DNA of 32,900 bases, taken from NCBI RefSeq assembly GCF_004010195.1, contig NC_057751.1:8152137-8185036 (forward strand), given 5' to 3'. The stretch comes from Chiloscyllium plagiosum (lineage: Eukaryota). This document shows positions 223-32,083 of the stretch, piece after piece. Numbering within the stretch: position 1 is the stretch's first letter; every line of letters starts with the position of its first letter. A model generated the notes under the pieces. It worked only from the letters and a program-made list of their open reading frames with translations, was not told the DNA's origin and made no database searches. A program made the position numbers and the translations under genes.

Positions 223-250
223 GCAGGGTATTACACCGAAGAAGCTTTTA

Positions 251-4591: not shown

Positions 4592-4630
4592 TTATTCCTG
4601 ATGAAGGGCTTTTGCCCGAAACGTCGATTT
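4592..4630 (+). ncRNA. Minimal hammerhead ribozyme motif, core intact
   Basis: CTGATGA 4598-4604, extra A, stem II GGGC-TTTT-GCCC, GAAA 4618-4621, C-GTC. Predicted cut after 4625; stem I weak. Confidence 0.75.
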
Positions 4631-4685
4631 CGAAGCTCCTTGGATGCTGCCTGAACTGCTGTGCTCTTCCAGCACCACTAATCCA
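4592..4685 (+). mobile_element. Penelope-like element terminal (pLTR) fragment, family A
   Basis: ttattcctgatgaagggcttttgcccgaaacgtcga...ggatgctgcctgaactgctgtgctcttccagcaccact; matches the reverse complement of ~12512-12606. Confidence 0.8.
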
Positions 4686-5426
4686 AGGACAAATAATGGT
4701 GAGTGGCTGTGGGTCCAGGTGTACAAGGGGACTGCACAGTCAACTTTCCTGCTCATTTCCCACTCTCAGGGAGCCCTCAGGCAGAATTCAGTATGCGCAG
4801 TCTATTGCAAGTTGTTCAACAAACAGTCATTTATTTCTTCATGTGAAATTATGTTGACATGTTTGGTTCTTTCAAAAACTGTTCAACGGCACAGTAAAAA
4901 TTTACATTTACATTTAAAGTGCTGCTATGGGAACCTTTTTTGTTTGACTTCTACAGTTATGCCCTACTTTCCAATTAACTATTGTAACTCAGTATTGCTG
5001 CTGCCTTGTTTACAGGCAGAGATGTAGACACAGTCACTGTGGATTTATTATTGAGGGCCATTAACAAGATTTTTGTCTAAAGTGTGTCTACATAAAAATG
5101 TTTCCACGAAAAGAGAGCTTGACTTGATTTAACTCCTTTTTACAACTTCAGGGTATCCCCAAGGAATCTTAAAGGTTCTGGAGCACTTGTGAATTCTAAT
5201 CATTGATACACGTCTGAAAAAGCAGTTTAACTAGCGTTTGTGTTCATGTGGCTTCCAGACCTGAACTATCAAAACCCCTTCGTAACCTGTTTGCGATAAT
5301 TATGCAAATTTGAACACAAAATCCAGGGGAACACATCAGCTTTTAATGCCCAGTTTACACCTCCGTCCCATTTGGATCTGGGCAAAATCTTTAGCTCAAA
5401 CATTACATTCAGCTGGCTGGGGATTT

Positions 5427-5552
5427 GGGGAGGTGACAGCCTTGTAGTATTATCCCTGGACTGTTCACCCAGAGACCCAGCTCATGTTCTGGAGACCCAG
5501 GTTCAATCCTGCCATAGCAACTGGTGGCATTTGCATTCAACAATAAAATCTG
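5427..5552 (+). mobile_element. 5' head of a tRNA-derived SINE (same family as 6522-6856), abutting an HE1 copy
   Basis: gggaggtgac...ccagagaccca...ggttcaatcc...tggtggcatttgcattcaa...aaaatctgg matches 6522-6640 and 29915-30025. Confidence 0.75.
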
Positions 5553-5850
5553 GGGCAGCACCAGGGACCCAGGTTTGATTGCAGCCTCAGGCTACTGTCT
5601 GTGTGGAGTTTGCACGTTCTCCCTGTGCCTGCGCGGGTTCCCTTCGGGTGCTCTGGTTTCCATCCACAGTTCAAAGATAAGGAGCATTGGCCATGGGAAA
5701 TTGCTGACAGTGTCCCAAGGATGTGTAGGTTAGGTGGGTTAGCCATGGGAAATGCAGGGTTACAGGGATAGATGGGTCTGGGTAGGGTGCTCTTGGAGGG
5801 TTTAGGTGGACTTGATAGGCTAAACAGCCTGCTTCCACACTGTAGGGATT
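5553..5850 (+). mobile_element. HE1-type V-SINE
   Basis: V domain gtctgtgtggagtttgcacgttctccc...ggtgctctggtttcc; 3' gcctgcttccacactgtaggga. Confidence 0.9.
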
Positions 5851-5934
5851 GTATAAGCTCCCAATGTCCGACTGTGGAGTTCTTGTCAGCTGTTTCCTCA
5901 TTTTATTGAACCAACCCTCTGATCTGGTTACAGC

Positions 5935-6025
5935 ATACCTGCACAGTCTTTACATCCTGCGATGGGACTTGAATGTTGACCAACTGGCCCAAAGGTAGGA
6001 ACATTGCCAAAATGTGACAAGAACC
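5935..6025 (-). mobile_element. Short tRNA-derived SINE fragment
   Basis: gatgggacttgaa...aaaggtaggaacattgcca is the reverse of the family at 17071 and 24435. Confidence 0.55.
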
Positions 6026-6069
6026 TGTCAAAGGTTAAATTTCATAGGTACATGTGGGTAACTATATTA

Positions 6070-6165
6070 CTCTTTCACATCTGGCCTGCGTGGGCAGACC
6101 TGCCTTGGTGTAATGCCTCATCTGAAAGATATCCACTTCAGTTAGTATAGCACTCCTGCAGAATG
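6070..6165 (-). mobile_element. Deu-domain SINE fragment (SacSINE1/AmnSINE1-like)
   Basis: gggcagacctgccttggtgtaatgcctcatctgaaaga...gcactcc resembles a reversed Deu domain. Confidence 0.55.
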
Positions 6166-6439
6166 GACCATTCTGATATACTGAACACTGACAACAGCTC
6201 TCGAGAACAGTTCTTCAAATCCTCTCTACTCACAGCGTCAATACAAGTGTCTGTTCCATTCACATGTACATCATCATCATTGACACATTCATTCCTATTA
6301 TACTGCAGCTATTTGTGCACCAAATCTTTCAGTTCATAACCTTCTTCACAGAAGGCTATTCTCTAAAAGTTTGACCCTCTCTGTTGTTGATGCACCAAAC
6401 ATCCCACCCATTATGGCACTTCAAATATAATGCACAATT

Positions 6440-7090
6440 AGAGTCAGAGAGTCATACAGCACAGGAAGAGACCCTTCGGCCCAACTTATCCATACCTTTC
6501 CTAAACTGAACTACGTCCTGCAGGGAGGTGAAGGCCCAGTTGGCCTGTTAACCCAGAGACCCAGGTAATGTTCTGGGGACTTGGGTTTGATGCCTGCTAC
6601 GGCAGATGGTGGAATTTGAAATCAACGAAAACGTGGAATTAAGAGTCTAATGATGATCATGAATCCGGAGACAACTGTTAGAAAAACCGATCTGGTTCAC
6701 TAATATCCTTCAGAGAAGGAAATTGGCATCCTTACCTGGTCTGGCTCCAGACCCACAGCAATGTGGTTGACTCTGAACTACCCTCTGGGCAATTAGGGAT
6801 GGGCAATAAATGCTGGCCTATCCAGTGATTCCCTCATTCTGTGAATGAATAAAACAAACTAGCCCCACTTGCCAGCATTTGGTCCATATGTCTCAAAACC
6901 TTACCCATGCATGTACCTGTCCAAATGTCTTTTCAATGTTGTAATTGTACTTGCCTCGACCTTCCTCTGGCAGCTGGTTCCATATACGATGCAGCTTCTG
7001 TATGAAAACATTACCCCTCGGTTCCCTTTTAAATTCATGCCTTAATGCCCTCTAGTTTTGGACTTCTCTACTCCAACGAAAAGACCTGGG
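6440..7090 (-). mobile_element. CR1 3' end interrupted by a SINE insertion
   Basis: gagtcatacagcacag...cccttcggcccaac tail, resuming at ~6860 with gcatttggtccatat...cttcctctggcagctggttcca. Confidence 0.85.
6522..6856 (+). mobile_element. Full-length tRNA-derived SINE with a Meta-like central domain and a LINE-derived tail
   Basis: Central ctggttcactaatatccttcagagaaggaaa...ccttacctggtctggc; tail gggcaattagggatgggcaataaatgctggcc...gaatgaataaaa shared with the LINE at 3230-4325. Confidence 0.85.
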
Positions 7091-7129
7091 AAAAATCAAC
7101 CACATCTCTGTGCATCTGCTGTTATATCT

Positions 7130-7445
7130 GGAACAGACCAAGGAAGGCTGTCAGATGACCTACCCTAAACAACACGAATGAACCAGATGTTTTTCTATGA
7201 CACACAATGAGAATTTCATGATTCCCCATTACTGAGGCCAGCTTTCAGTTCCTGACTTATTTGACTGAGCTTCATTTTAAACCAAAATTGTCACCATCGT
7301 TTCACTGACAACAAGCTTCAAATTGTTTCGAACAAAAGCTGCAACCAAATTGTCACAATGAGGATGGTGGGATTTAGAATTAGATTCCAGCAGATACTGA
7401 ACTCAGGTACGCGGATTGCCAGTGACAAAGAATTATACCACCATA
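7130..7445 (-). mobile_element. Older diverged copy of the Meta-like SINE group
   Basis: gaatgaaccagatg...atttcatg...cattactgaggccagctttc...ggtgggatttagaa resembles the reversed core and head. Confidence 0.55.
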
Positions 7446-7964
7446 CCTGGTATAACATTATTGAGCTTTACATTGTGCGTTTGACACACTTTTTTGGAGA
7501 CTGAATCTCAAGAAGCCCCTTCTGTGGACAGCCAATTATCATTTTGGAAACTGCAGAAGTCTTCAAGATGCTCATGACAAGTCTAAATCCAAACAGCTGA
7601 TTCCCCAAATGAATGCTCAATAAATGAGCCACTCAGCTGAACAGTAAAACTCCGAACATGTGCCTGCCAAACAGGGTGTTTAATAATGGTGCTATACCTG
7701 CATTCTTCTGTGGACACAATGTGGTTAGATTTATTCCTCTAATAAGTTTTAGGTGAGAGCAAAAATGATGAATGGATCCATGGCACAGCTACAGATGTAA
7801 CCAGATTAGCAAGATGTTTTTATTTTATAGAATGGCTGTAGGCCTGACGGAAGAACAGCAAAGTTTTCCCAAAGGGCTGCTTCTGACTTTATAGCCACTA
7901 TTCCATCCAATTTTGAAGATGGTGCTGACTTTGTGTTATGTTTAGAATTGCACTCAGTAATTTA

Positions 7965-8280
7965 ATTAAGGGGCAACTTGATTGAAAGTTTTCAAGTTAT
8001 TAAGGGGAACTGACAGAGTAGATGGAGAGGAACTGTTTCAACTGGCTGAGGATTTTAGAACTCAGAGAGACAGATCTGAATAATGTGGAGCCAGATCTTC
8101 ACAAGGCTAGGTTCTGAAACACATCCACATGTCAAGGATGGGACAGGTTTTGAACAATCTTCTGAAAATAGCAGTTAATGGGATTTCAGCTGTCATTTTC
8201 AAGTTCCACCAAGTTGCATTTTTGTGAATTAAACATAGGAAGTGACAGGGAAACAGGCACACATATGGAGATGGGTCAAA
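7965..8280 (+). mobile_element. Old CR1 3' fragment
   Basis: ttaaggggcaacttgattgaaagttttcaag encodes an LRGNLIE remnant of the RRLRGDLIEVFK motif. Confidence 0.65.
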
Positions 8281-9524
8281 AAACAGTCACAACCTGATAC
8301 ATTAATGGGGGAAGAGCCGAAACTGGTTCCTCAGGTCTGAAGTGCCCTTCTGCCTCCCTGTCCAAATGGATAACCCCAAAGCCCAGATAGAACTTGAGTT
8401 GAGTTGAGACATGCACAGCAGGCTTTTGTATCACCCTCAGGTTTCTCGAGGGTAAAAAGATATGATGTTGGCCATGAGTGTGTGGTGATATTCTCATCTG
8501 ACAAGATCAACAACTTCTTTGAAGTGGATAGCTGGTAATGAGGTAAGGCTGGTCTCTGTTCCCTCAATCATGCAATACACTGCTGCCGTTCATTGTCCAG
8601 GTTACAAAGAATTTGAACAAGTGGCATTGGGGTAAGCAGGTAACTGTGTAACATGTTCCACAATCCCATCAAGGGCAGGGGTGGCAGTGGAGGAGAGAAT
8701 GGGGAGGGCAGTGAAAGGATGAAAAAGAAAATGTCACCTCCACATTGCAAAACAGAAATTCATTACAATGTTGGAGCTCTCACAAGGATTGGAGTGATGA
8801 CCACAGATTAGTCAGTGTGGAAGATGGGATGCACATGTAGAGTGGAGAGGCTGAATGAGTTGCTGTGCTGAAGGAGTTCCATCATGGATAGGACTGGAAT
8901 TCCCATGTGTGGACAGACAGCCATGTTCATTTCACTTGGCTTGGTGTGTGTTCTTTACAGAGAAAAGCCAGCCAAAAGCTAACATGAGTTGCCCCCACCT
9001 CTTGTCCTCCCTCTCTCGTTCTCAGAAACAATTTAATACAATTACCGACTCCTTTATCTGGGAAACCAGTTACAGCATTTTGAATTAAATTGTCTCCCTA
9101 AGTGGGACCATTTTCTGCAGAGGGAATAATTTAATGGATGATGAATCAAGATGAACTAATGTGTACTGAGCAAGCCATAACACAGACACAAAATGCTAGT
9201 ACTACTGATCTGAAATTCTCACTCTACGGGGAAGCACGACACAGAATGCTCAAAGAGGCTCTTGTGAAATGGGGCTCTTTGTCTGCAGGCTGCTCATTAT
9301 TTAGGACTTTAACCACTTAAGGGTGTGAATTTAATTACAGAATCTAAAGCCCAGTTGTTTGTGTCCAAGGCCCTAGAAGGATGAATGCAGAATAAAGAGG
9401 GCTTTATATTGGGAACTCTAATTAGTGCTCAATACGTTGCCATGGTGGCAAGCCAACATTTGAGAGGCATTCATGGACATTTTGTGAAGATGGAGCATGG
9501 TGGGCCATCCCTCTGGCCCCTATG

Positions 9525-9818
9525 AGTGGCTCGGTGGTTAGCACTGCTACCAGGGACCTGGGTTCGATTCCAGCCTCAGGCAACTGTCTATGTGGGGTTT
9601 GCACATTCTCCCCGTGTCTGCGTAGGTTTCCTCTGGGTGCTCTGGTTTCCTCCCATAATCCAAAGATGTGCCATGCCAAATTGCCCGCAGTGTTGGGTGC
9701 ATCGGTCAGGGGTAAATACAGGGCAGGGGAATGGGTCTGGGTGGGTTATTCTTCAGAGGGTCAGTGTGGACTAGGTGGGCCGAAGGACCTGTCTCTACAC
9801 TGTAGGGAATCTAATCAA
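9525..9818 (+). mobile_element. HE1-type V-SINE
   Basis: gtggctcggtggttagcac A box, ggttcgattcc B box, V domain, gaatctaatc tail. Confidence 0.9.
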
Positions 9819-10184
9819 ATGAGGCATGGTGTGCTGGACAGGGCAGGACACGTGCTGTATCTCAGCATGGAGAACTCAGCATTGAAGAGGTTGTTTTATG
9901 CTTCATCTCATCCATATTACCCCTGGCTTGAAATTAATTTTCCAGCATAGCACACAGATTGACAATGACACTGTCCCGAAAGAATACACAGTTTGTGCAC
10001 AGAAGCAGATAAGTTTTGGAAGAGGCTATTTGGCCCATTGAATCTTCAAACGAGCATCATCACTAAATGTGAGTCTCCTGCATTATCACCAGACCCTTGA
10101 TGATATGATAGAGAATGAGTTCAGTCCAAATGTCTCTTCAAACTGGACCCTGGAAAGAATCCAGGAACAGAACAGAAACTGTTG

Positions 10185-11380: not shown

Positions 11381-11384
11381 ACTT

Positions 11385-11712
11385 AGACTCACAGGATCCC
11401 TGCAGTATGGAGGCAGGCCATTCGGTCCACCAAGTCCCCACCGACCAGCATCCCACCCACACCCACCCCCCTTAAACCCTGTATTTCCAATGGCTCATCC
11501 TCCGAACCTACACATCCCTATGCACTCGGGACAATTTAGCATGGCCAATTCATCCAACCTGCACATTTTTGAATTGTGCGAGGAAACCAGAGCAAACCCA
11601 CCCAGATACAGGGAGGATGTGCAAATTCCACACAGACTGTTGCCCGAGGCTGGAATTGACCCTGGGTCCCCTGGCACTGTGAGGCAGCAGTGCTAACCAT
11701 TGAGCCGCTGTG
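11385..11712 (-). mobile_element. HE1-type V-SINE
   Basis: Reverse complement of the HE1 head (cagcggctcaatggttagcactgctgcctcacagtgccagg) and V domain. Confidence 0.9.
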
Positions 11713-12254
11713 ACTGAAGTCCCTCGGTCACTGGTACCATTCCAATATATTGGCTCTGCACCCTCTTTAGTCCTTGAAGTGATAAGTAATGGTAACTTGA
11801 GTGAAGTGCAATAACTCACCCAGTGACAATGGAAGAGGGTCCCCTGTTGTGAATCAAGAAGAGAAAAGGAGGAAACTGGTAGCAAGGGAATCCGTGGACC
11901 AGTGTCTGTTGAGGCTCTGTGCATTCAGTTTGTTAACTGAGGGCCCACAGGAGTCTGGGAGGAAACTTTCGACATAGTTTCCCCACTGTCATTGATACAA
12001 ATTGCATTAAGTGGAGTGGATTGATATTTTGACATTTTTCATCCTTGAGTATTGCCCCTAATTCTTGATGTGAATGGAGTGGAACCTAATGAAATCACTG
12101 CAGGAACAAAGCTGGACAAATACAGGAATAATGGATGAATGAACACTATCAGTCAGAGGACTATATCTTCATTGTGAGACAATGAGGACTGTGTGGAATC
12201 TAAGTTAAAAATCATACAACACCCGGGTTATAGTCCAACAGGTTTAATTGGAAG

Positions 12255-12289
12255 CACTAGCTTTCAGAGTGCCGCTCCTTCATCAAGTG
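12255..12289 (-). ncRNA. Minimal hammerhead motif, C3U variant
   Basis: Minus strand: CAC TTGATGA A GGAGC GGC ACTCT GAAA GC TA GTG. Confidence 0.55.
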
Positions 12290-12295
12290 GACAAC

Positions 12296-12330
12296 CACCT
12301 AATGAAGGAGCAGCGCTCCGAAAGCTAGTG
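12296..12330 (+). ncRNA. Minimal hammerhead motif, G5A-mutated (probably inactive)
   Basis: CAC CTAATGA A GGAGC AGC GCTCC GAAA GC TA GTG. Confidence 0.55.
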
Positions 12331-12474
12331 TGCTTCCAAATAAATCTGTTGGACTATAACCTGGTGTTGTGTGATTTTTTAACTTTGTACACCCCAGTTC
12401 AACACCGAACTCTTCAAATCATGTGTGGAATCTGAAATGGATATCAACTTTACAGCAGGCAAGGTTTTGTTTCA

Positions 12475-12786
12475 AGGTAAAAACAATGACTGCAGATGCT
12501 GGAAACCAGATTCTGGATCAGTGGTGCTGGAAGAGCACAGCAATTCAGGCAGCATCCGAGGACAGGCAAAATCGACGTTTCGGGCAAAAGCCCTTCATCA
12601 GGAATAAAGGCAGAGAGCCTGAAGCGTGGAGAGATAAGCTAGAGGAGGGTGGGGGTGGGGAATCTCAGGGAGTCTCTCTCCCACTGCAACTCCCAGGTCA
12701 TTTCCTCAGCCCTGAAGCTCTTCAACCATGTCCTGAAACAAACTCGACTCTATGCTACTCTCTCCCCACCCCGGATGCTGCCTGAA
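12475..12786 (-). mobile_element. Rearranged Penelope-like element (family A) with a 14-bp TSD
   Basis: Flanked by aaggttttgtttca at 12461-12474 and 12787-12800. Minus-strand terminal repeat 12475-12660, then a plus-strand piece reading NLRESLSHCNSQVISSALKLFNHVLKQTR. Confidence 0.85.
12568..12606 (-). ncRNA. Minimal hammerhead ribozyme motif, core intact
   Basis: Minus strand: TTATTC CTGATGA A GGGC TTTT GCCC GAAA C GTC GATT; predicted cut between 12574 and 12573. Confidence 0.75.
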
Positions 12787-13123
12787 AAGGTTTTGTTTCA
12801 GTCAATGGAGAAGCAGAGGGCTCTGCATTAGTATCTCACAGCACAGGAGGAGGCCATTCAGCCCATTGTGTTGAAGTGGGACCTCAAAAGCAGTAATCGC
12901 AGCAATTACTCCCTTTGCCTCGTGCTGGGCAGCATAAGAACAGAAGAATTAATCAACTGAATATGTGGCTGGGAGCTGGTGTAGGAAGGAGAGCACCTGA
13001 CTTCTGAGGGAACTGGGATAGATTCTGGGGCAAGTGGGAGGTGTACAAGCCCAACAGATTACATAGTGAAATTGATATGCTCACAGAGTGGTTGGCTCAT
13101 TTTGTTCGGGTAGGTTTGAACTA

Positions 13124-13259
13124 CCCCAACATTCCTGAAGAAGGGCTCATGCCCGAAACGTCGATTCTCCTGCTCCTTCGATGCTGCCTGACCTGCTGCG
13201 CTTTTCTAGCAACACATTTTCAGCTCTGATCTCCAGCATCTGCAGTCCTCACTTTCTCC
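13124..13259 (+). mobile_element. Short Penelope-like end (family A variant) with a 13-bp TSD
   Basis: Flanked by taggtttgaacta at 13111-13123 and 13260-13272. Confidence 0.88.
13131..13166 (+). ncRNA. Minimal hammerhead ribozyme motif, core intact
   Basis: CTGAAGA 13135-13141, extra A, GGGC-TCAT-GCCC, GAAA 13155-13158, C-GTC; predicted cut after 13162. Confidence 0.75.
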
Positions 13260-13519
13260 TAGGTTTGAACTAGTCTGTCAGGGGGACTGGGGACCTAATG
13301 GGTAACCCAAATTGGAAGGAAGTAAAGTTGGGAACTGGAAGTTGAAAAGATGCTCGGGACACTCGGCCACAGGAGAACCCAAACTGAGTACCGAGACTGC
13401 TTCCAAAGAAGGATGATATAAAAAAGGCAAAGTTTGGGGATCTCTATCTGAATGCACACAGCATTTGCAACAATGTACATGATCAAAAGGCACAAAGAGG
13501 GATACACAGGTACGATCAC

Positions 13520-13757
13520 ATTGTCATTTGTAATTTGGAACTTATAACTTTCTTCCTTATTTCGAACTTGAAACTGACAAGAACTGTAATGCTGAACTTC
13601 TGCCTTATTTATTTTTCTCCTCCTTACTTAAGATTTTGTACGTAGATACCTTGCACCTGAGATGGCACCGTAAATGGTGACATTGTACACTTTTCACTGC
13701 ATTCCTGTATCCCTGTACATGGGCACACACCACAATAAAGCCTAATGCTAATTCTAA
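13520..13757 (+). mobile_element. 3' end of another non-LTR element (Rex1/Babar-like tail) inserted in the CR1
   Basis: cacttttcactgcatt...gtacatg...acaataaagcctaatgctaattcta tail; interrupts the CR1 EN region between tacgatcaca and attacagaaaca. Confidence 0.5.
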
Positions 13758-15795: not shown

Positions 15796-15819
15796 GTAAA
15801 ATAATACAGTCCATAACTA

Positions 15820-16654: not shown

Positions 16655-16870
16655 CCATAGAACAATAGAATCCCTACCATGTGGAAGCAGGCCATTCAGC
16701 CTATCAAGTCCACACTGGCCCTCCAAAGAGCATCCCACCCAGATCCAACCCCCTAGCTATCCCTGTTACCCTGATTTCCCAGGGCAAATCCACCTAGCCA
16801 GCATATCCTTGACACTGTGGGTAATTTAGCATGGCCAATCCACTCAACCTATGCATCTTGGGACACAGGG
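16655..16870 (-). mobile_element. HE1-type SINE 3' part
   Basis: catagaacaatagaatccctacc...gcaggccattcagcc...taatttagcatggccaatccac. Confidence 0.85.
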
Positions 16871-17070
16871 GGAAATTAGCCCCCTCCCTCCCTCTCTCCT
16901 TATGATGATCTGCATTGCCCTGAATGGATTTTGCACATAAGTTGGAAAACATCAGCAATTTACTGGTGGTGGTTAACTGATGAAAAAAACAAAAACAGGG
17001 AATTTTCTGGTAAAGAAAAACGTTCAGTTCAGTGGAACAGCACTTCCGGATACAAAGAAAAGAACATAAG

Positions 17071-17185: not shown

Positions 17186-17299
17186 AATGGGGAACAAGTC
17201 CAAATGGAGCCATGAGACTGAGTGGTTCATTAAACTGAATCACAAAGAATCTTGTGCTGGTTTCTGTCTCACCAATTGGCTTAAATCCATACTGACACT

Positions 17300-17785: not shown

Positions 17786-17791
17786 AGTCAA

Positions 17792-18148: not shown

Positions 18149-18329
18149 TCTACAGAAAAATGTTCCTCCTATAATGTTCCACTGCCCTTGAAAGAATTGG
18201 AAACATGAGGACAAATGTCTATTCCTTTCTTTACCTGTATGTGGTAGCCTCCATCCACTGTGATATGACACTTTGGCATGTTTGAATCCTCACGATACAG
18301 CTTTACCGCTTTGCTAATTATTTCTGTAA

Positions 18330-18557
18330 GAACATGACATTTCTTCCCAAGAATGGGCGAAACAATCCCTCAGTGCTACATTGACAAAGTCTCACAGCAA
18401 AATTCAGTGAAATGCTCAGGCAAATCTTAGGGTGTGCTGCTTTGCTCATGATGCTGTTCTGTCAAACAGAGGCTGACTCTGCCTTCTCAGGCATACGTAA
18501 ACTGTTCTATGACATTATTCCAAAGATGTTAGGGTACATCCCCCCAGTGTCCTTGGT
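18330..18557 (+). repeat. 228-bp direct repeat, copy 1 (copy 2 at 20148-20375)
   Basis: About 88-89% identity by manual alignment, including a 42-bp exact match ttcagtgaaatgctcaggcaaatcttagggtgtgctgctttg. Confidence 0.95.
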
Positions 18558-19879
18558 GATCAATTCTAATTATTTTTCAGAATAAAGTGAAAGTGAATTT
18601 TCTTGTCAGTGTATTGCACAATGGGAAAGCAGGACATTTGGTGTTAGTTGACTGTCTGCAAAATGAACCTGCATTCTTATAGGAACTACTATCACCTGAC
18701 GTGAACTGTATCCAACTGACGGAGCTCTTCATCAGGCTTCATCATGGTTAGTCCAAATATTTACACTGAGGAGCAGTCAAAACATCAATCAAACCAAGTT
18801 GGCATCTTCATCCCTTAGGTTTCCAATAGGTCTTCTTTCCATGCTCAACATGAAAACCACACAATGACCATACACACCATCGCAAAGTGAAACAAAGAAT
18901 ACAATAATCAATGTAACTAGATATTAAGTAATAGGTAATTAACATCTTTAACTGAGACTGAGCCTATCTTCTGCCCAATGTGTATTGTGAGTATTCTTTC
19001 CCAATAACGTACTCATATTCGGAAGAAGACGCTGGCAGCGAATCAACCCAAGATGTCCTCAATGATTTCAGCAAATTCAGCAGTAGTAATGGGCATTACG
19101 TATTTCGGTATCCCAAAGTGAAAATGTAGAAGTGTGCAGGTGAAACACCAGTTGTGTGTCACATCATCTCACCTCAGATATGTGCAATGGGACTCCCAAA
19201 CTGGTCTTCGCAGCTTGGGATTGCAAAGGGAGTTTTCCTGCCCCCAAAAGTTCACAGAAAATCACGCCAATTGATGGATAAAAGCAAGACGGAAAGATCA
19301 TCTTTCTGCATTGCCCAGACTCACACATGAAAGATGGGCGAATTATGTTGATAGGTTCACTAAAAGAGAAGTGGGTGGGGGTGGGAAGGGTGGTGGTGAG
19401 TGGGAGCGCTGAAAAACTAATGCGGTAAAACTAATTCTGACTCATGAGCAATGGAGAGGGAGATGAGAAACTGTCACTTTCCACACCTACAAAAAGTGGA
19501 AACATTTCTGTTCTCTGTGCAGCTTGATAGCACACAAGTGCATAAATGTTACTACAGCTGTCATGACTCTGATTCACTCACATTACAATGTCCAATTGCT
19601 TGGCACTACAAACCAATCTGGATAGTGAGAGCCTTGCCATAAGGAGGGGGGACAGCACAGATAAAGATAAATAGTAATTCTTCAGTGCATCCTAAATTAT
19701 TTTTCTGGATTTGTGCCACACTTTTGATCAACAGTCAAAGATGGAAAGGAAACTGCACAAATATTCAATACCATAGATAAGGTATTATAATGCATTGAAC
19801 ACTACTGTCAGTCTCTGGTGGCTGTTGGAAACATTTCTATGATGTAACCCCAAGCCTGATAAGCCAGACAGAGTCAAAG

Positions 19880-20200
19880 CATTTCATACTGTTACGTCAG
19901 GCCTATTCCAAACATCCCACTTGAGCCTAAAGTGTGGGGACTGTTATTATTTCAGCAAATAAACCTAAATTTTGTGCACAACAGGCTTCCAGCAATGCAA
20001 TGTGGAAAGCACATCATGCTGATTTGTTATTTATTTTGAGGTGGAGTGAATATTACTTGAGGGAGACATGCTGTAGCTACATTGGTATAACTACCTGCAC
20101 TTCTGTCACTGGGGTCTTCAATGCCCCCTTGAAATTAAACAAAGCCTGAACATGACATTTCTTCCCAAAGATGGCAAAACAATCTCTCAGTGCGACATCA
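19880..20200 (-). mobile_element. Old Deu-domain SINE, reverse orientation
   Basis: aagtgtggggactgttattat...aattttgtgcacaacaggcttcc...gcaatgtg...ggggtcttcaatgcccccttga resembles the reversed tail and Deu domain. Confidence 0.5.
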
Positions 20201-20375
20201 ACAATCCCTGACAGTACAGTTCAGTGAAATGCTCAGGCAAATCTTAGGGTGTGCTGCTTTGTTCATGATGCTGTTCTGTTAAACAGAGGCTGACTCTGCC
20301 TTCTCAGGCACGCGTAATCTGTTCTGTGACATTATTCCAAAGATGTTAGGGCACACCCCACCCAGTGTCCTTGGT
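20148..20375 (+). repeat. 228-bp direct repeat, copy 2
   Basis: Aligns to 18330-18557. Confidence 0.95.
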
Positions 20376-20535
20376 CAATAATGATCTTTCAGCCAATGTC
20401 ATCTACTGGGTTCCTATTTCTTGGGGTTTTCTGAATTTGGTTGCTGTGCTTTCTGCTTCCACTGCAGTTCAAGAAGCACTTCATTGGTCGTGGCATCCAG
20501 AAAGACATCAAGCAAATACACATTCTCTCTTGCTT
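20230..20535 (+). mobile_element. Old Deu-domain SINE (SacSINE1-like)
   Basis: ttaaacagaggctgactctgccttctcaggcacgcgtaa...cagtgtccttggtcaata...ttcaagaagcacttcattgg. Confidence 0.65.
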
Positions 20536-20599
20536 TCCATAATGCGCATGCCTTGGGCATTTTTTTCTTTAAATCTTCTCTTCTGACTCAGGGGTGAGA

Positions 20600-20806
20600 G
20601 CACTGGATGTAATTTTGCTCGCTGAGCTGGAAGGTTTGTTTTCAGACGTTTCGTCACCATACCAGGTAACATCATCAGTGAGCCTCTGGTGAAGCACTGG
20701 TGCTAGTGACCCGCTTTCTATTTATATGTTTAGGTTTCCTGGGGTCGGTGGTGTCATTTCCTGTGGCGATTAGTTATTTCCTGCTCTTTTCCTCAGAGGG
20801 TGGTAA
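20600..20806 (-). mobile_element. Penelope-like element end (family D)
   Basis: ttgctcgctgagctggaaggtttgttttcagacgtttcgtcacc...ggtaacatcatcagtg; carries a hammerhead motif. Confidence 0.75.
20642..20681 (-). ncRNA. Minimal hammerhead ribozyme motif, core intact, 6-bp stem II
   Basis: Minus strand: TCA CTGATGA T GTTACC TGGTAT GGTGAC GAAA C GTC TGA. Confidence 0.8.
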
Positions 20807-21189
20807 GAGACCGCTGTCCACTGAGCCAAGTTAAGGGTCACCTCAATTCCTTGTTGGTGCCAAGTCGTCAGATCTCAGGGCTCATTGGTCAAGGATCAAC
20901 AGTCAGCATTCCTGTTGATGGTCAGCAGCAACTGACCTGATGAGTCAAACACTGCCCTGCAACACCCAAAACTGGTCACCCACCACACCACCCTCACCAA
21001 CCCATACAGCTGGAAAACCAGAGCAACTGAACACTGGGTGGCGACCAAAACTGACCCAATCACAACTCCCTGGTGTAAGTCAATGCCCTGATTCAGAAGG
21101 TGGGCGCAGAGCCCTAGCGGAGGGGACCAGCAAACACACAAATCCCAACACACACGGGAAGAAGGAGGAACTGAAAAAGGAGAGTTGGG

Positions 21190-21930
21190 TAACACTGCGC
21201 ATGCACTCAGTTTCTCATTCCTCCCACACAACACAGCAGAGGCAATGAACTCTTTCTATCATTTTCTTTTTAATTTCCAAAACGCGCATTAAGAAATTCC
21301 CCGTGATTTCATGCCCCATTTGAAGCGACACCAAGTGACATTCGTGGAGACTCATTGTCACTGCCGCGTATGGCTCATCCTCTGCTGTGTGCGAGGAAAT
21401 GGTTTTTAACAAATCGGCGAGATTAATTGCTCGCCTGTGTTATGCGCTCGTCGTCTTCTTCCAAATGAACTCGTCATTTCTGCGGAAACGCTGTGGAGCA
21501 GGATCAATAAGTCGGGGGAAAATCAAGGTGAAAAGGAACCTCTCGAGTCCAACGCGAAGTTAAGAGCCGTGTAAATATTTTTAACCCCTAACACGCTGGC
21601 CACCCACCCCAGCTCCTGCGCCAGTATCATAATGCGACATCGGACACTGAATCCGACACCATGCCAGTCCGTTTTGTCACCGCTATGTATGACCAGAGAA
21701 AGATGGTTTCGCCGCCAGCATTAGCCCAGTTAACTGATTCAGATATCATTCATTTGCTGACCAGCTTCCCGTCAGTATGTCCATTTCAGCGACAGTGAGC
21801 TGAGTGGCGCACGGTGGGCGCTGAGTCTCGGCCACAGCCCACCAAAGTTGCAAACGGAGTTTTCACTTCAAGGCAAACACGAGCTGTCAAGAATCAACGC
21901 TCCCCCGGAGAAGCTGAAAATCGGGGAGAT
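21190..21930. promoter_or_regulatory. CpG-island-like, repeat-free block (candidate enhancer or promoter)
   Basis: About 40 CpG in ~750 bp by manual count, against sparse CpG in most of the window; NRF1-like tgcgcatgca at 21196-21205. Confidence 0.65.
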
Positions 21931-22248
21931 AATTACTCATGTGTGTGTTATGTGTGTGCCATCTTCTCCCAAACGGACAGCGAACAAAACTCCCTGCACA
22001 GACCTTTCCCCAGCAAGCGTGGCCCCTCCACACACACACACAAAAAAAAACTCCCCCAAAGTCAGTTGAGTCTCAGACCACTTTTTATTTTTGCTTCTCT
22101 TCCCCCATTCTCCAGCACTTCAATTTTGATCAGCCACGTGATCGGCAGGACCAGCATTTTGTCTCTCCTCATCTTGCCGAACATGGAAGGGGGCCTGTTT
22201 AACTCATGGGAGTTCCCAAACACTGTCCCCACTCTCCTCGGGGCGGCT

Positions 22249-22293
22249 CAGAGTTCTGAGGAAGGGTCACTCGACCCGAAACCCTGAACTCTG
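22249..22293 (+). ncRNA. Hammerhead motif with a 7-bp stem I but mutated stem III/cleavage triplet
   Basis: CAGAGTT CTGAGGA A GGGTC ACTC GACCC GAAA CCCTG AACTCTG. Confidence 0.55.
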
Positions 22294-22385
22294 ATTTCTC
22301 CCCCTTGCTGAGCTTTACCGACAATTCCTGGTCTGGGTTTCTGATTTTGCACAACATCCGCAGTTCTTCCGTGTTGTTTTGTTTC
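22249..22385 (+). mobile_element. Penelope-like end (family C)
   Basis: gagttctgaggaagggtcactcgacccgaaac...tgctgagcttt...catccgcagttctt; homologous to the reverse of 24678-24812. Confidence 0.75.
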
Positions 22386-22807
22386 ACTCAAGAGCGATCT
22401 GAGTGACCATCATTCTGCAGTGACAGAGGCAAGAGAGGGAAATCAGGGCCCGACAGAAAGTCAGACCTCTGATTATTCAATGCATCGCAGGACCATTTAC
22501 TAAATCTAGGGAACGGATAGGACTGCAGAATAGAGCAGGCGAAAAAGTACAACTGCGGGAGGACATTCGGCCCCTCAAGTCGTGTTCTTTTGAAGAATAA
22601 TTAATTGAGCTTGCCCTCCTTTGGGTTCTGTATGAATTCCTCAGTCCTCACCTGGAGTTGCTAATCATCTCCCAACTCATCATCCACCCCACTGAAAACT
22701 GGGGGGAAGGCTTTCAGTCTGAACCAGTGGTTCTCACCCCAGCCAACATCTGCACAGTGAAACGGCTCCAACTCCATCACCTGGGTCATGTCACACATGA
22801 TACAAGA

Positions 22808-23312
22808 CATAGAGTCATAGAGATGTACAGCACAGAAACAGACTCTTCAGTCCAAGTCGTCCATGCTGACCAGATAGCCTAAATTAATCTTGCCCCATTT
22901 GTCAGCATTTGGCCCATATCCCTCCAAACCCTTCCTATTCATATACCCATATAGATGCCTTTTAAATGTTGCAATTGTACCAGCCTCCGCCACTTCCGCT
23001 GGCAGCTCATTCCATATATGTACCACCCTCTGTGTGAAAAAGTTGCCCCTTAGGTCCCTTGAAAATCTTTCCCCTCTCACCAAAACCTATGCCCTCTAGT
23101 TCTGGACTCTCCCAACCCAGGGAAAAGACCTTGTCAATTTATTCTATCCATGCCCTTCATGATTTTCTAAATCTCTCGAAGGTCACCCCTCAGCTTCGAC
23201 CCTCCGGAGAAAACAGTCCCAGCCTATTCAGCCTCTCCCTATAGCTCAAATTCTCCAACCCCGGCAACATCCTAGTCAATATTTTCTGAACCCTCTCAAG
23301 TTTCACAACATC
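22808..23312 (-). mobile_element. CR1 LINE 3' end
   Basis: ORF 22847-23083 gives RGNFFTQRVVHIWNELPAEV; ctatgactctatg tail. Confidence 0.93.
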
Positions 23313-23389
23313 CTTCTGACAGTGGGGGATACCTCTCTACACATTTTATCTGCACAGAACAGTGCAACATGGTTTGGTGCAGCATGCTT

Positions 23390-23640
23390 TGGTTTGATTT
23401 ATTATTGTCACATATGCCTTGGGACAATGAAAAGTTTTGTTCTGCATGCTGTACAGACAGGTCATGCCATACAAAGATCATAGGCTGGTAGAACAGTGCG
23501 AGGAATACAAAGTTATGGCTGCTAAAGGTGACAGACTTAGAATTGAGGTTTAAAAGTGCAAAACGATTAGAGGAAAAAGGAGATAAGACATTCTGCAGTG
23601 GGCTCACTAAGAGCCATCTTGTGTTGGTGTCATCTTGATC
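23390..23640 (-). mobile_element. Rex1/Babar-like non-LTR 3' end
   Basis: tttgatttattattgtcacat...acaatgaaaagttttgt is the reverse of a cttttcac...gtgacaataa type tail. Confidence 0.45.
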
Positions 23641-23754
23641 CATGATAAGCATGATTTGTGTTACTGCTTTCAGATCAACCTATTATTAGTTTCCCAAAAG
23701 ATGATTGCAATAATTTAATCAAACATGCCATAATGTCTCAAAGAAGTGCTCCCC

Positions 23755-24185
23755 TGTCATAGAGTTATGAAGAACTGAAACAGACTGTTCAGTCCAACCA
23801 GTCCATGCTGACCATAATTCCTTGGATGCTGCCTGACCTACTGCGCTTTTCCAGCAACACATTTTCAGCCATAATCCCAAAGTGAACTGGTCCCAAAGGC
23901 CTGCACTAGGCCCATATCTCTCCAAACATTTCCTGTTCATGAACTTATCCAAATGTCTTTTAAACATTGTAACTGTGCCCACACCCATCACTTCCTCTGG
24001 CAAGTCATTCCACACATGAAGCACCCTCTGTGTAAAACAAGTTGTCTCTCATGTCCTTTTTAAATTCTTCTCATCTTAAAAACATGCCACCCCCCACCCC
24101 TCCTAGTTTTGAACTCCCCTATCCTTGGGAAAAGACCCTTCTCATTCACCTCTCAACCCGCTCTGCTCCAGTGAAATATAATCCA
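23755..24185 (-). mobile_element. CR1 LINE 3' end carrying a 50-bp insertion
   Basis: ORF 23719-24024 gives VWNDLPEEVMGVGTVTMFKRHLDKFM. Confidence 0.9.
23819..23868 (+). mobile_element. 50-bp Penelope-like (family A) micro-insertion with a 7-bp TSD
   Basis: Matches ~13174-13223; flanked by ccataat at 23812-23818 and 23869-23875. Confidence 0.85.
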
Positions 24186-24434
24186 GTATACTTTTTATTT
24201 CTCAAATCCTCCATTACATATTGACTGCTTGTAAGATGAAAATATTTATGTTTTGTTTTGGCATGGATTAATTATTTGCCTCTGATGTATCATTTTAAAT
24301 AAGTAGGAACAACCTTAGTTATAAAATATGAATGCACATTAATTTACTGATCAATGGTTTCAAATCCCACCATGATGAGGTCATTGTCCAAGGAAATTGA
24401 GTCAGAAGGAATATTCAACAGCCAACCCATAGAC

Positions 24435-24545
24435 AGGTGTCTTCTGGAACAGTGGCAGTCCCTACCTCTGAGCCAAGTGTATGGGGTTCAAGCCCCAACT
24501 GCTCTAGAACAAGTTGTTGAAGGGTCACTGCTTAACTGATTTATA
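24435..24545 (+). mobile_element. Short tRNA-derived SINE
   Basis: cagtggcagtccctacctctgagcca...ggggttcaagcccc. Confidence 0.65.
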
Positions 24546-24677
24546 GTTGCAAACATCTCCATCAAATCTCCCCAGCCTTTTGTGATCACAGGACAATGAT
24601 GCATGTTTCTCCACTCAACTGCCACCCCTAATTCTGGAAACCATTCCAGCGGCAGCCTTCCAAATTTTACAGAATAT

Positions 24678-24812
24678 AAACCAAAAGAACTGCGGATGCT
24701 ATACATCAGAAGCAAAAACAGAAGTTGCTGGAAAAGCTCAGCAGGTCCGGCAGCATCCATGCAGAGAAATCACAGTTAACGTTTCGGGTCAGTGATCCTT
24801 CCTCATAACTGA
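24678..24812 (-). mobile_element. Penelope-like end (family C) with a C3A-mutated hammerhead at 24774-24811
   Basis: Minus strand: CAGTT ATGAGGA A GGATC ACT GACCC GAAA C GTT AACTG, followed by gatgctgccggacctgctgagcttttccagc. Confidence 0.8.
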
Positions 24813-25180
24813 AAGTCCAGGCTCCCACCCAATCAAGAGCCCTTGAGCAAACAATCAAAAGTTGGCATCTCATTGGAGCGGTCCAGACAATAGCTCAGTC
24901 TGACCTCTAAGGGCAACCTACTCTTCACTGAAGATTCATAGAGGAGCTGGGGGACTTTTACGTGAGGAGTCCTGCCCACTCTTTCCCCTTCAGTAGCATC
25001 ACTGAATCGGATTAATTGGTCTGCACATCATTATCTTTTGGTTGGTTCTTGCTGTGTGTAAAGGGGTTGCCACATTTCTGATAGCGATCATTCCAAATCA
25101 AAAATACCTGTATCGGCTGAAGAGCGCTGTCAGACACCCTGAGATTCTCAAAGATGCTATAGAAATGCAATTTTTTTCAA
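24813..25180 (+). mobile_element. Old Deu-domain SINE
   Basis: cttgctgtgtgtaaaggggttgccacatttc...ggctgaagagcgct...aaagatgctatagaaatgcaa tail. Confidence 0.55.
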
Positions 25181-25224
25181 CTTTACTTTCGTGGATACTT
25201 TCTAATCATCAAATTCAGAAATGT

Positions 25225-25305
25225 TATTACACACCTCTGGTGGACATAGGAATTGAACCTGGGCTTTCTGCCTCAGACGTAGGAACACTATCACTCCACC
25301 ATCGG
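25225..25305 (-). mobile_element. Short tRNA-derived SINE
   Basis: ttatacacacctctg...ggaattgaacctgggctttctgcctcagacgtaggaacacta-like segment, reverse of the 17071 family. Confidence 0.7.
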
Positions 25306-26794
25306 AATACCATCCCAAAACAAAACCCAAAGCATTTACCTGGTGTCCTGAATTGCGAGCCTCATGATATTACCAGGACAGTACTGCCTTCTCAGTAACT
25401 TTCTTACTTGGATACCTAGCCATTCCACTTTAACTACCAATGCTGTCGTGCATTCTCAGTGGTTGACTGCACGGCTTCTCTCCTTTCATATATGACAACA
25501 TGTCCACAAAAGGTGCCCCCAAAACATCTGGAAATTGATTAAAAAGAAACAGCGTCTTCAAAAATGAAATAAAACTTCATTCAAACCTCAACAGAACTTA
25601 AACAAATAAACTTGAATGTGGGTTGAGAAACTGTTTGTATTAGCAAGCCTTCATCCAAATATAGTTCAAGTGAAGATAATTCCTGACAACAAAGTGGTAT
25701 TTTAAATGCAAATGTGCCTTGCAACTGGAAGGTCTCCATATATCAGTGCATGGGTGGATGTGCGAACATATAAGCTAACTGCTGGTGACTACATTTTCTT
25801 GATCCCATACATTCCAAGTGAGTTGAGATTGATTGTGAATTGTGGCTGATGATTAGCGTCATTGTCACATGGTAGGGCAACATCTTATACTATGCTTCTC
25901 ATCTGCAGGATGATATCTAAGAGATGAAAGTGTTAAAGTAGATGACTTGTGGAGAATAAAACAGCTGGGATAGAGGACTGAAAAGAAATGTTTCAAGATT
26001 ATTCAAATGAAAAAAAAAAGAGGCATTGAGCTGACATTGCTGTTTGGTGCTTTCAAGAGGATGTGTGATGCCATCTTCAAAAAACTTGTTTAAACTTCCA
26101 AGGGATCACATTATTCTAATTCAAGCATATATTTGTGTTTTTTTGACTCTGTTGCTCGGATTGTCAATAGGTCTGTCAGTGCAGGTTACAATTGTATCTC
26201 TGGAGACTTAGATGCACAATTATGAAGGGAAGTTTAATAAATATTGCAGATTTCTTCCGCAGTCATGCAAATGTGATGTTTGTACTAAATTTTTTTTCTA
26301 AGTTGTACCTGTCAGTATGTCCAGACCATAGTTTGTAGCACTAAAAATTAGGTAATTATTTACCACTATTTATACCATCGCTATTCAACAAATTCTCCAA
26401 CAAACAATTAACTATGGACAGGATTAATTTGTGATTTACTAATCCCTGGTGTGGTAAATCAAAACAATGCAGGAGTCAAGCTGACGTACAAAAGGGCATT
26501 CAGAATGGTGGACATCCTGTCTGTAAACAGCTTAGTCCTTAGTCCGAGCCACAACTTCCTCAGAAGTGCCTTACCTTCATCAAAGTTAACGCTGTCCCCA
26601 TTTCCCACTATGTTAAGTAGAGTTGGTGATGCCTGATTGTGAGTTGTTCTACAAAGTGAGCATTCCTGACTACCTCAGACTGCACCTGTTTGGGTGCTGC
26701 ATTGTTATGACATGTATGGTTAGGTACAAAGATGGGTTCACACGAAATGTGACACAATTTGTAAAACGAAACAATCCAGGTCGTTTCTCATTCC

Positions 26795-27095
26795 CTTCAG
26801 TGTCATTCACAGGAAACAGGCATCACTGCAAAGTCCAACATTTGTGGCCCATATCTACATGTCTTTGAGAAGGCAGTGGAGAGTTACCTTCCTGAATGTC
26901 CCTCAGGCTGACAGAAATATCTTTGAGAGCAAACATGTTGCTATGTGTTTTGAGTCATGCATTGGCCACTACAGGTAAGAACTGCAGATTTCCTTTCTGA
27001 CATACACTGGTGAATCAGGTGGGATTTTTAATGAAAATTTGGTAGTTACATAATTTCCATGACTAACTCCAGTTTTCTTTTATATTCTAGATTTA
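26795..27095 (-). mobile_element. Old Meta-like SINE copy
   Basis: catttgtggcccat...tttgagaaggcagtgg...gagtcatgcattggcc...caggtaagaactgcagatttccttt...tggtgaatcaggtggg. Confidence 0.6.
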
Positions 27096-27819
27096 GTCCA
27101 AGTTGAGATCCTCCTTAAAGCTGAAATTCTTTTGGTATTTCACACCTAGTTTTTTTTTGCGGTGTAGCCTGAATGTTACAGCAGTAAAAAGCCTTCTGCA
27201 AATATAAATAGATTTCTGGTACACTGCAAACAAAGTAAAGGTTGTAGGAATAACCAAGGTCAGAATTCATGTCAAAGATATAATAGATGACACATTACCC
27301 TGTTATCAATGCAATGTTTCGGAAAATAAGCGCTCTGTGCTATTAGAAGGATCAAAGACTAATCTTCACAGGAGTTGGGCAAGAGGGATAATGGTCATCC
27401 GAGCATTATAAATAGCTGAGTGTGGGCACTGGTTGAGAGGGTTTCGACAACTAGCCTCCAACATCAGGTAAATCAAAAGCGACAGGTGGAATGAGAGCGA
27501 GAAAGAGAAAGAGGATTCCATGGAAACAAGCCACCACCTTCTTGGGAGAAGACCAGGAGTCCGCCAACATCAGTCTCGGGGAAACATAAAGTCTATTATC
27601 ACCAAAGACTGCATGATATCAGGGGCGTACTATGCACTACTCCAAAACCGTAGGGGTCCACTGCACCTGCTCCTTCATTCTACAGATCAGCTTCAGAATC
27701 ACGAAAGTGTTTGCATCTGTCAATGATCATAGATTCTTTTTATTTGCCAAATAAACCAATGTATCACATTGGAACATATGTTTCTTTTTATATTTTCTAA
27801 CCAAGTGATCAAAGTGTTG

Positions 27820-27900
27820 GTGCACACCTCTAGAACAGATGGGACTTGAAACCAGATCTCCTGGCCCAGAAGTAGGGTCACTACTATTGCATAAGAGCTC
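27820..27900 (-). mobile_element. Short tRNA-derived SINE
   Basis: cacacctctagaacagatgggacttgaaaccag...ctggcccagaagtagggtcactac. Confidence 0.7.
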
Positions 27901-27928
27901 CTAAACTGGTGCTTCTTAGCAAACTCAA

Positions 27929-28270
27929 TAGAATCGTAGAGACGTAGAGATATACAGCATGGAATCAGAGCCTTCGGTCCAACTTTTCCATGCCAACCTC
28001 ATATCCTATGTAAATCCCATCTCATTTTCCAGCATTTGGCCCATATCCTTCTACACCCTTCCTATTCATATACCTGTCCGGATGCCTCTTAAGCGTTGCA
28101 ATTGTATGATCCTCCACCACTTCCTCTGGCAGCTCATTCCACTCCCCCACCTCCACCGCCCCCCCCCTTCCCACCAACACACACCACCCTCTGCCTGACA
28201 AAGTTGCCCCTCAGGTCCCTTTCAAATCTTTCCCCTCTCACCTTAAATCTATGCCCTCTAGTTTTGGTCT
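27929..28270 (-). mobile_element. CR1 LINE 3' end containing a C-rich low-complexity patch (~28141-28180)
   Basis: Homologous to 22808-23100. Confidence 0.9.
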
Positions 28271-28394
28271 ATTCACCCTCATCATTTTAAAGATTTATGT
28301 GCACTCACCCCTCAGCAAATTGTCACTTGCCTGTATTAGGTAACTGTGATCACGAACCACCACTTCTTGTCCCCACTACAACATCCAAAATTAA

Positions 28395-28495
28395 AATAAA
28401 GACAGTCACTGGGCATGAAACGTTAACTCCGCTTTCTTTCCACAGATGCTGCCAGATTTGCTGAGTTTCTCCGGCAAGTTCTGCTTTAAGATTGA
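28395..28495 (+). mobile_element. Degenerate Penelope-like end
   Basis: gaaacgttaactccgctttctttccacagatgctgccagatttgctgagtttctcc. Confidence 0.65.
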
Positions 28496-28556
28496 TTTGA
28501 ATAAACTTATATTCATTGGTCATCATCATGGGATTTGATTGTGTTTCTGAATGATC

Positions 28557-28710
28557 TGGAGAAAGTGAGTACTGCAGATGCTGGACACCAGAGTCGAAAA
28601 GTGTGGTGCTGGAAAAGCACATCAGGGCAGGCAGCATCCGAAGAGCAGGAGTGTTGACGTTTCAGGCATAAGATCCTGATGAAGGGCTTATGCACAAAAC
28701 ATCTACTCTT
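28557..28710 (-). mobile_element. Penelope-like end (family A) with a short inverted hammerhead segment
   Basis: Minus copy 28558-28672, then plus-strand cctgatgaagggcttatgcacaaaac; imperfect TSD tgaatgatc (28548-28556) / tgaataatc (28711-28719). Confidence 0.8.
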
Positions 28711-32068: not shown

Positions 32069-32083
32069 GTGTGTGTGTGTGTG
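32069..32083. repeat. (GT)n microsatellite
   Basis: gtgtgtgtgtgtgtg. Confidence 0.85.

Follow-up and report, generated by a model that had tools for sequence, protein, structure and literature searches.

A 32,900-nucleotide (nt) stretch of the genome of the shark Chiloscyllium plagiosum (NCBI RefSeq assembly GCF_004010195.1, contig NC_057751.1, forward-strand positions 8,152,137 to 8,185,036; here called the window) carries repeated short motifs that are very probably minimal type I hammerhead ribozymes in the pseudo-long terminal repeats (pLTRs) of at least four families of Penelope-like elements (PLEs). Self-comparison of the window grouped the motifs into family A (subfamilies A1 and A2) and families B, C, and D. 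The families are very large in the genome, and the copies in the window are in all likelihood inert. A first-pass annotation, made from the letters of the window, had proposed eight such motifs. Below, each motif is named by the window position and strand of its conserved C3.

Detection of the motifs and chance level

The window was scanned with a descriptor for the minimal type I hammerhead (CUGANGA, 0 or 1 extra base, a helix II of at least 4 base pairs [bp], GAAA, a paired dinucleotide, and UH), a check suggested by the first-pass annotation. Exact cores were found at 4598+, 12601-, 13135+, and 20678-, a count of 4 in the window; none of the 60 dinucleotide shuffles gave an exact core. When a single core deviation was allowed, nine matches were obtained (shuffle mean, 0.45; maximum, 2). 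Seven of these were family members, the additions being 12286- (C3U), 12299+ (G5A), and 24806- (C3A), and two (27007+ and 18373-) were chance-like. The remaining site, 22256+, was reached only when two deviations were allowed, a level at which the window yielded 20 matches and chance 7.7; it has lost the 15.2/16.2 palindrome, and an extra base puts G at position 17.

Hammerhead-like strings are present at all eight sites proposed earlier, for which either C3 or the edge of helix I had been given as the position. The core that was said to recur at them (CUGANGA...GAAA...NUH) is exact in four of the eight and broken in the other four (12286-, 12299+, 22256+, and 24806-). Family B has no intact copy in the window, its two copies being broken at different places. 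The remnants noted earlier near 28660-28700 are real and lie at 28558-28672 (-) and 28674-28703 (+).

All nine motifs agree with the PLE consensus published in 2014 in features outside the descriptor, so the motif class is a known one, as had been stated. G occupied position 10.1 in eight of eight copies, the 10.1-11.1 closing pair was G-C in seven of eight and G-U in one, and a 15.2-16.2 palindrome without loop 3 (ACGU or AGCU) was present in seven of eight; ACGU is common to families A, B, and D. An extra base between A9 and position 10.1, on the stem II side, was found in nine of nine motifs; a descriptor lacking this base gave no exact-core match in the window. The base was not mentioned in the first-pass annotation.

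An Rfam search of the window returned seven unrelated matches at an E value of ≤10 and no hammerhead among them, so Rfam does miss these motifs, as had been predicted for standard annotation. That result, together with the 7.7 chance matches of the two-deviation scan, might be taken to mean that all of the matches are chance strings. The probability of this is negligible: the shuffle comparison at strict stringency refutes it, and the strict matches occupy the same place in their repeat families and agree with the published consensus. Hammerhead-like strings at 18373-, 20190-, 27007+, 6647+, and 30034+ were rejected; they have neither helix I nor G10.1-C11.1 and fall within the chance range.

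Pairing of helices I and II

Pair counts were made without the automatic alignment of the nine motifs, which misplaced family D. Helix II was fully paired in six of eight copies. The assertion that this stem always pairs was incorrect, since 12286- contains a C-A mismatch and a G-U closing pair and 24806- contains one A-C mismatch. Helix I was 2 bp long in the three family A copies (GGGC/GCCC), 3 bp in families C and D, and 5 bp in the better family B copy (24806-), and its pairing probability was ≤0.034 in every copy but the broken one at 22256 (seven of eight). Stem I had been described as varying while still pairing; it does vary, but the pairing amounts to only 2 bp in the GGGC/GCCC copies, and the 7-bp CAGAGUU/AACUCUG helix belongs to a broken copy. 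Likewise, the covariation reported for the window holds as a difference in pairing between four unrelated families but not inside a family: no compensatory change was found within any family in the window, and the three family A stems are identical, with differences in the loops alone.

Insertion anatomy and the link to Penelope-like elements

The PLE origin of the motifs is supported by the anatomy of the pieces that carry them, which are short, 5′-truncated insertions with target-site duplications, optional tails, and a piece of a PLE open reading frame (ORF). Exact duplications of 12, 14, and 13 bp flank 3 of 10 inserts tested, and one of 7 bp flanks one more. The 12-bp duplication (at 12190 and 12422) encloses a family C pair in head-to-head orientation with a 4-nt spacer. 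Its tail-less arm (12202-12290) contains the motif at 12255-12289 (-), with C3U and two helix II defects, and its tailed arm (12295-12421) contains the motif at 12296-12330 (+), with G5A; the last ~36 bases occur in one arm only. This pair thus shows tail, head-to-head inversion, and target-site duplication together. The 14-bp duplication (at 12461 and 12787) encloses the 12475-12786 insert, in which a tailed family A1 piece (12475-12660) with an intact motif at 12572-12603 (-) is joined to an inverted piece of the PLE ORF N terminus at 12661-12745 (+). At 12746-12786, the same insert closes with two further short pieces of the element, one of ~25 nt from its upstream sequence and one of ~15 nt that follows the motif; such a structure points to repeated template switching. 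The 13-bp duplication (at 13111 and 13260) flanks a solo family A2 unit (13124-13259) headed by an intact motif at 13133-13164 (+).

The intact family A1 motif at 4596-4627 (+), with 4 bp in helix II and 2 bp in helix I, heads a tail-less pLTR piece (4592-4687). Family A copies end with or without the tail, and the tail difference is ~35 to 38 nt in both families A and C. Inverted truncated copies and an optional tail of 30 to 40 bp are hallmarks of PLEs (PMC8557442, PMC3846280, PMC11167929).

The family D motif at 20642-20681 (-) has an intact core, a 6-bp helix II, and a 3-bp helix I and is accompanied by ~150 bp of upstream element sequence. Family B is represented by a motif at 22249-22293 (+), in which both the palindrome of helix III and the cut site are damaged, and by one at 24773-24811 (-), with C3A, one helix II mismatch, and a 5-bp helix I. 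Fragmentary copies are also present. A head-to-head family A2 remnant (28558-28703, both strands) consists of a minus copy cut off in loop 2 (28558-28672) and a plus head (28674-28703) with G12A and G16.2A; both bases lost from this head, the 28676 remnant, lie within CpGs. A headless family A2 piece with the 7-bp duplication lies inside another repeat at 23819-23868 (+). A family B piece at 28417-28487 (+) begins at GAAA, the first half of the motif being absent, and a similar piece occurs at ~1260-1325.

The 85-bp ORF piece inside the 14-bp duplication matched two of three candidate proteins, one from Chiloscyllium punctatum (88%) and one from Stegostoma tigrinum (74%), which would place the host among the carpet sharks or close to them. 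The S. tigrinum protein found 100 relatives at an E value of ≤0.001. A Pfam scan covered 11 of them, and four (882 to 927 amino acids) had a C-terminal GIY-YIG match, three of these with an RVT_1 match as well. Full-length relatives of the family A ORF carry a CX2-5CxxC linker, a feature of Neptune and Nematis PLEs (PMC8557442). Proteins P0001 and P0002 gave no reverse transcriptase (RT) or GIY-YIG match, and protein P0075 was an unrelated match and was set aside. The window contains no full-length PLE.

Several observations weigh against a PLE assignment of all four families. No duplication was found for 4598, 22256, or 24806 among the 10 inserts tested, and three further inserts have only doubtful duplications of 6 to 7 bp. 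The second step of the protein comparison had E values of 4e-7 to 5.5e-4, with RVT_1 passing the Pfam cutoff in one of the four proteins and GIY-YIG in one of the four, and the 32-amino-acid piece did not align when compared directly with a full-length protein. The weak two-step protein tie covers family A only, and families B, C, and D are assigned by insertion anatomy. With this restriction, the PLE origin stated in the first-pass annotation is backed by duplications, tails, head-to-head inversions, and the ORF piece.

In the family D piece, a putative reading frame stops at a UGA made of core bases U4-G5-A6 (window 20675-20680, -), so that ORF end and ribozyme core may overlap there. The last ~120 amino acids of a whale shark "prostatic acid phosphatase-like isoform X1" are the family A PLE ORF, which also makes up most of a Hemiscyllium "mucin-2-like" protein; both entries are gene models that absorbed the element.

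Genomic abundance and sequence variation

Public runs were mapped onto window positions 12151-13290 (1,140 bp) at 80% likeness. Contig records from other loci numbered 207,063 for one species (X1) and 193,048 for a relative (X12; 85% of the run read), and summed depth was 10^6 to 10^7 on repeats versus 2.5 to 90 on unique bins; record counts and depth ratios are not copy numbers. The families are thus very large in the genome, and the large motif population postulated earlier is supported by these ~200,000 records on ~1.1 kb. Motif density suggests 10^4 to 10^5 or more copies. Scaling the 4 intact motifs per 32.9 kb to the 2.68-Gb contig set gives ~3x10^5 (Poisson range, 0.9 to 8x10^5), an estimate biased upward because the window was chosen for its motifs. 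A search with family A and B flank anchors returned 1 viral and 69 metagenome loci, and 0 of the 70 aligned to the window beyond the anchor at an E value of ≤1e-6.

In family C, the majority letters among mapped records restore the broken cores. G5, mutated at 12299, is present in 96% and 97% of contig depth and in 816 of 852 RNA reads; C3, mutated at 12286, is present in 87% and 81% of contig depth and in 323 of 374 RNA reads. The two helix II bases that are defective at 12286 are restored in 44 to 76% of mapped depth. Among the 40 of 250 variants shown, 8 fall in four motifs: 4 restore core or helix, 4 lie in loop 2 (14 positions), and none breaks any of 108 constrained positions. Such a pattern would be expected if selection acted on master elements and the inserted copies then decayed neutrally. 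The 40 of 250 variants come, however, from a table that favors reference-like reads and does not amount to a formal test of conservation.

Junctions between mapped copies revealed two further arrangements. Head-to-tail joints of a 130-nt family A unit (13131-13260 and 12605) were seen, among the joints shown, in ~93 contigs of X1 (23, 14, 38, and 18 by joint) and 73 of X12 (9, 18, 26, and 20) and in 1 RNA read; these are candidates for dimer-competent arrangements elsewhere in the genome. A T-rich family C position is frequently fused, in tail-to-tail orientation, with the tail end of family A, linking 12379 to 12475/12476 and to 13255/13260 in both species (119 contigs of X1 and 132 of X12 among those shown). 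Targeting of one PLE family into another is a possible reading of these joints.

Family C poly(A) signal

On the plus strand, family C carries a poly(A) signal at 12339-12379, comprising the hexamer AAUAAA (12339-12344), which starts 12 nt after the cut site (12327), a junction at 12356-12359, and a GU/U-rich stretch (12360-12379) downstream of the junction. The signal is used in vivo, as read ends in RNA run X21 indicate; this run is a single-cell oligo-dT library of which 2% was read, with 7,898 reads mapped and 97% of them from other loci. Poly(T) stood before 12228 (558 reads) and 12231 (442 reads), and poly(A) stood behind 12359 (346 reads), for a total of 1,346 of the 7,898 reads. No RNA record was listed for window positions 19000-28900, and run X22 gave no mapped reads. 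The poly(A) and poly(T) ends mirror one another in position between the two arms of family C and lie 11 to 15 nt after a hexamer, AAUAAA on the plus arm and AUUAAA on the minus arm. Both hexamers are common among mapped reads (AUUAAA in 39%, 18%, and 51% at 12340), and neither arm in the window has a downstream genomic A run (at most 3 A in 10 nt). These data come from one run, with at least two sequence variants and reads perhaps from few genes; 2,428 loose ends exist in addition to those shown, so A-tailed genomic copies are possible, and cut products are lost from such a library.

Reads sense to the hammerhead made up 79 to 91% of family C reads versus 42 to 61% of family A reads. Most family C RNAs are uncut, because sense depth stays high from 12247 (1,414) into helix II (1,043 to 1,109). 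Several examples in the 2014 alignment carry AAUAAA behind helix I, scored there as AU rich (PMC4209133), and a literature search, to which subscription journals were largely external, found no paper on a poly(A) signal in a PLE pLTR.

A rather doubtful proposal, though one with consequences, is that family C forms a mobile 3′-end cassette composed of a minimal hammerhead, a working poly(A) signal 12 nt farther on, and a GU/U-rich element. If so, shark genes would acquire cryptic poly(A) sites from its many thousands of copies, and a ribozyme activated by dimerization or by the element protein would remove poly(A) signal and tail, acting as an on/off switch for the RNA 3′ end. Confirmation at many loci would bear on how PLE transcripts end, on the purpose of the hammerhead, and on how repeats shape shark transcript ends.

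Cleavage competence of the window copies

A minimal hammerhead can form helix III only together with a second copy, and in the 2014 tests monomers were uncut and dimers were weak (PMC4209133). The Anolis motif cleaved only with the element protein and was dispensable for insertion in vitro, and no RNA sequencing (RNA-Seq) read ends were reported at its cut site (PMC11167929); one of nine Xenopus dimers cleaved (Li et al. 2026 preprint, 10.64898/2026.07.22.740005). In the window, no same-strand tandem pair of one family was found, the nearest same-strand pairs of intact motifs being 8 kb apart. The head-to-head family C pair folds into one long hairpin (-124 kcal/mol). No pile of RNA read ends was found at the cut sites among the 7,898 mapped reads of X21. 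We judge the window copies inert, with high confidence, because there is no tandem pair, helix I barely forms, and no cut RNA ends were seen. One point tells against this conclusion: cleavage products of 30 nt would be missing from a single-cell oligo-dT library, which makes the absence of cut ends weak evidence. The term "self-cleaving" applied earlier to the population is not borne out for these copies, given that four of eight are broken, no tandem pair or RNA end pile is present, and monomers were inactive in 2014.

According to published work, the 4-base palindromes (ACGU or AGCU) of two such motifs in the RNA of a tandem element pair with each other; this forms helix III, and slow cleavage follows, possibly helped by the element protein. 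In the mechanism that we favor, selection would keep the core in active master elements. A lone inserted copy would have no partner and would decay neutrally, with many of the changes at the CpGs of C11.1-G12 and 15.2-16.2, and lone copies would not cut host RNA.

An opposing view is that the dispersed copies form an active population that cleaves host pre-mRNAs, with the shared ACGU palindrome providing the pairing in trans or over kilobase distances. It could appeal to the four intact cores in 32.9 kb, to a palindrome common to families A, B, and D, and to transcription of family sequences (7,898 reads in X21). The intermolecular helix, however, would be just 4 bp, with a computed energy of -3 to -4.5 kcal/mol, and about three-quarters of sense reads cross the family C cut site into helix II. 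Together with the inactive monomers, weak dimers, and protein-dependent Anolis motif of the earlier studies and the eight of nine Xenopus dimers that stayed uncut, these values make such activity improbable. That the intact family D motif has been domesticated and now regulates a host transcript is more improbable still. Its intact core, the longest helix II, and its location ~300 bp from a CpG island (the CpG-rich stretch 21001-22000) would suit such a role, but the motif is single, still lies within its element, and has a helix I probability of 0.02, and no host gene was found for it.

Origin of the short hammerhead-headed units

Six of nine motif-bearing pieces start 2 to 11 nt before C3; two extend farther upstream, and one is unplaceable. 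For these few copies, the start positions suggest run-off complementary DNA (cDNA) from RNA initiated at the hammerhead head, or RT stalling there. Many of the short units may have a route of their own, which would refine and not replace the view that they are truncation debris. We consider this possible, though the less probable case. In one version, RNA begins at the hammerhead head and RT starts internally, 95 to 135 nt downstream; in the other, nonautonomous, retrozyme-like units form tandems and cleave as dimers. The clustered starts (from duplications and pairwise alignments) and the 130-nt head-to-tail joints in DNA are in line with such routes, as are the internal RT start shown for the Anolis PLE (PMC11167929) and the tandem PLE-derived retrozymes of one chondrichthyan (2026 preprint). 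Yet the clustering is based on nine pieces that were selected because they contain a motif, the same ends would result if RT stalled at helix II, and the breaks at 12605 are confounded by subfamily A2. Tandem joints account for only ~93 of 207,063 records among those shown, no tandem occurs in the window, and the Drosophila virilis transcript starts ~125 nt before the motif (PMC2377424).

Other repeats and landmarks in the window

Many 3′-end fragments of long interspersed elements occur in the window (161-1093, 1640-2150, 22810-23320, 23720-24140, and 27940-28290), with a weak RVT_1 match at 161-676 (E value, 8.5e-4); they may be CR1-like. A dispersed repeat resembling a short interspersed element, perhaps HE1-like, is found at 2680-2945, 5550-5855, 9545-9825, 11435-11710, and 16665-16885 (68 to 85% identity). 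A 190-bp direct repeat (18356-18545 and 20173-20362; 89% identity) has copies 1.8 kb apart, and a hammerhead-like string within it, without helix I, was judged to be due to chance. Two CpG-rich stretches, 21001-22000 (observed/expected, 0.74 to 0.85) and 31501-32500 (0.51 to 0.78), are likely promoters.

Comparison with known systems

As a ribozyme class, the motifs add nothing new; massive abundance, covariation at the family level, and the additional base have all been published before. The minimal PLE hammerheads of 2014 were described as dispersed single copies and opposite-strand pairs, with covariation and thousands of copies per vertebrate genome (Cervera and de la Pena 2014, PMC4209133); the counts were ~4,000 for coelacanth and ~9,000 for Xenopus. 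The shark motifs share their type I topology without loop 3, palindromic 15.2-16.2, extra base 9/10.1, G10.1-C11.1, short helix I (only 2 bp in family A, the same as in D. virilis), presence of several families per genome, and occurrence mostly as single dispersed copies or opposite-strand pairs. They differ in density, which here suggests 10^4 to 10^5 or more versus ~4,000 and ~9,000 copies, and in host, no shark being among the aligned examples in the accessible parts of that paper.

PAc, a Poseidon element of Anolis carolinensis (Frangieh et al. 2024, PMC11167929), likewise has a pLTR hammerhead, an optional tail of 30 to 40 bp, which arises there from two RT start sites, and no RNA-Seq reads ending at the cut site. 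Unlike PAc, the family A ORF has relatives with a Neptune/Nematis-type CX2-5CxxC linker, and the shark families are known from sequence. Non-LTR retrozymes (Cervera and de la Pena 2020, PMC7229834; 2026 preprint) are also short noncoding PLE-related units with type I hammerheads, and the shark genome has rare head-to-tail tandems of its 130-nt unit. The window, by contrast, has monomers and inverted pairs and no run of two or more consecutive units each with a complete hammerhead, and its minimal motifs lack the contacts between loops 1 and 2 that canonical retrozyme hammerheads make. Canonical type I hammerheads, with helix III and loop-loop contacts, are represented in Rfam, no hammerhead model of which matched in the window at an E value of ≤10. 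The hammerhead in the 3′ untranslated region of rodent Clec2 genes (PMC6765202) resembles family C in having its cut site upstream of a poly(A) signal. The Clec2 ribozyme is split, active, and specific to a single gene, while in family C a repeat carries a minimal motif that is a predicted ribozyme.

For sharks, our literature search found no dedicated description of hammerheads in Penelope elements; one review uses "shark" only as a name origin. The accessible sources do report one chondrichthyan with tandem retrozymes (Li et al. 2026 preprint), and the whale shark genome paper lists Penelope among the repeats. The present motifs provide a large natural alignment for locating selection (master elements versus dispersed copies) and several fresh dimer candidates, and they extend PLE minimal hammerheads to a shark genome whose load may be 10 to 100 times the 2014 vertebrate counts.

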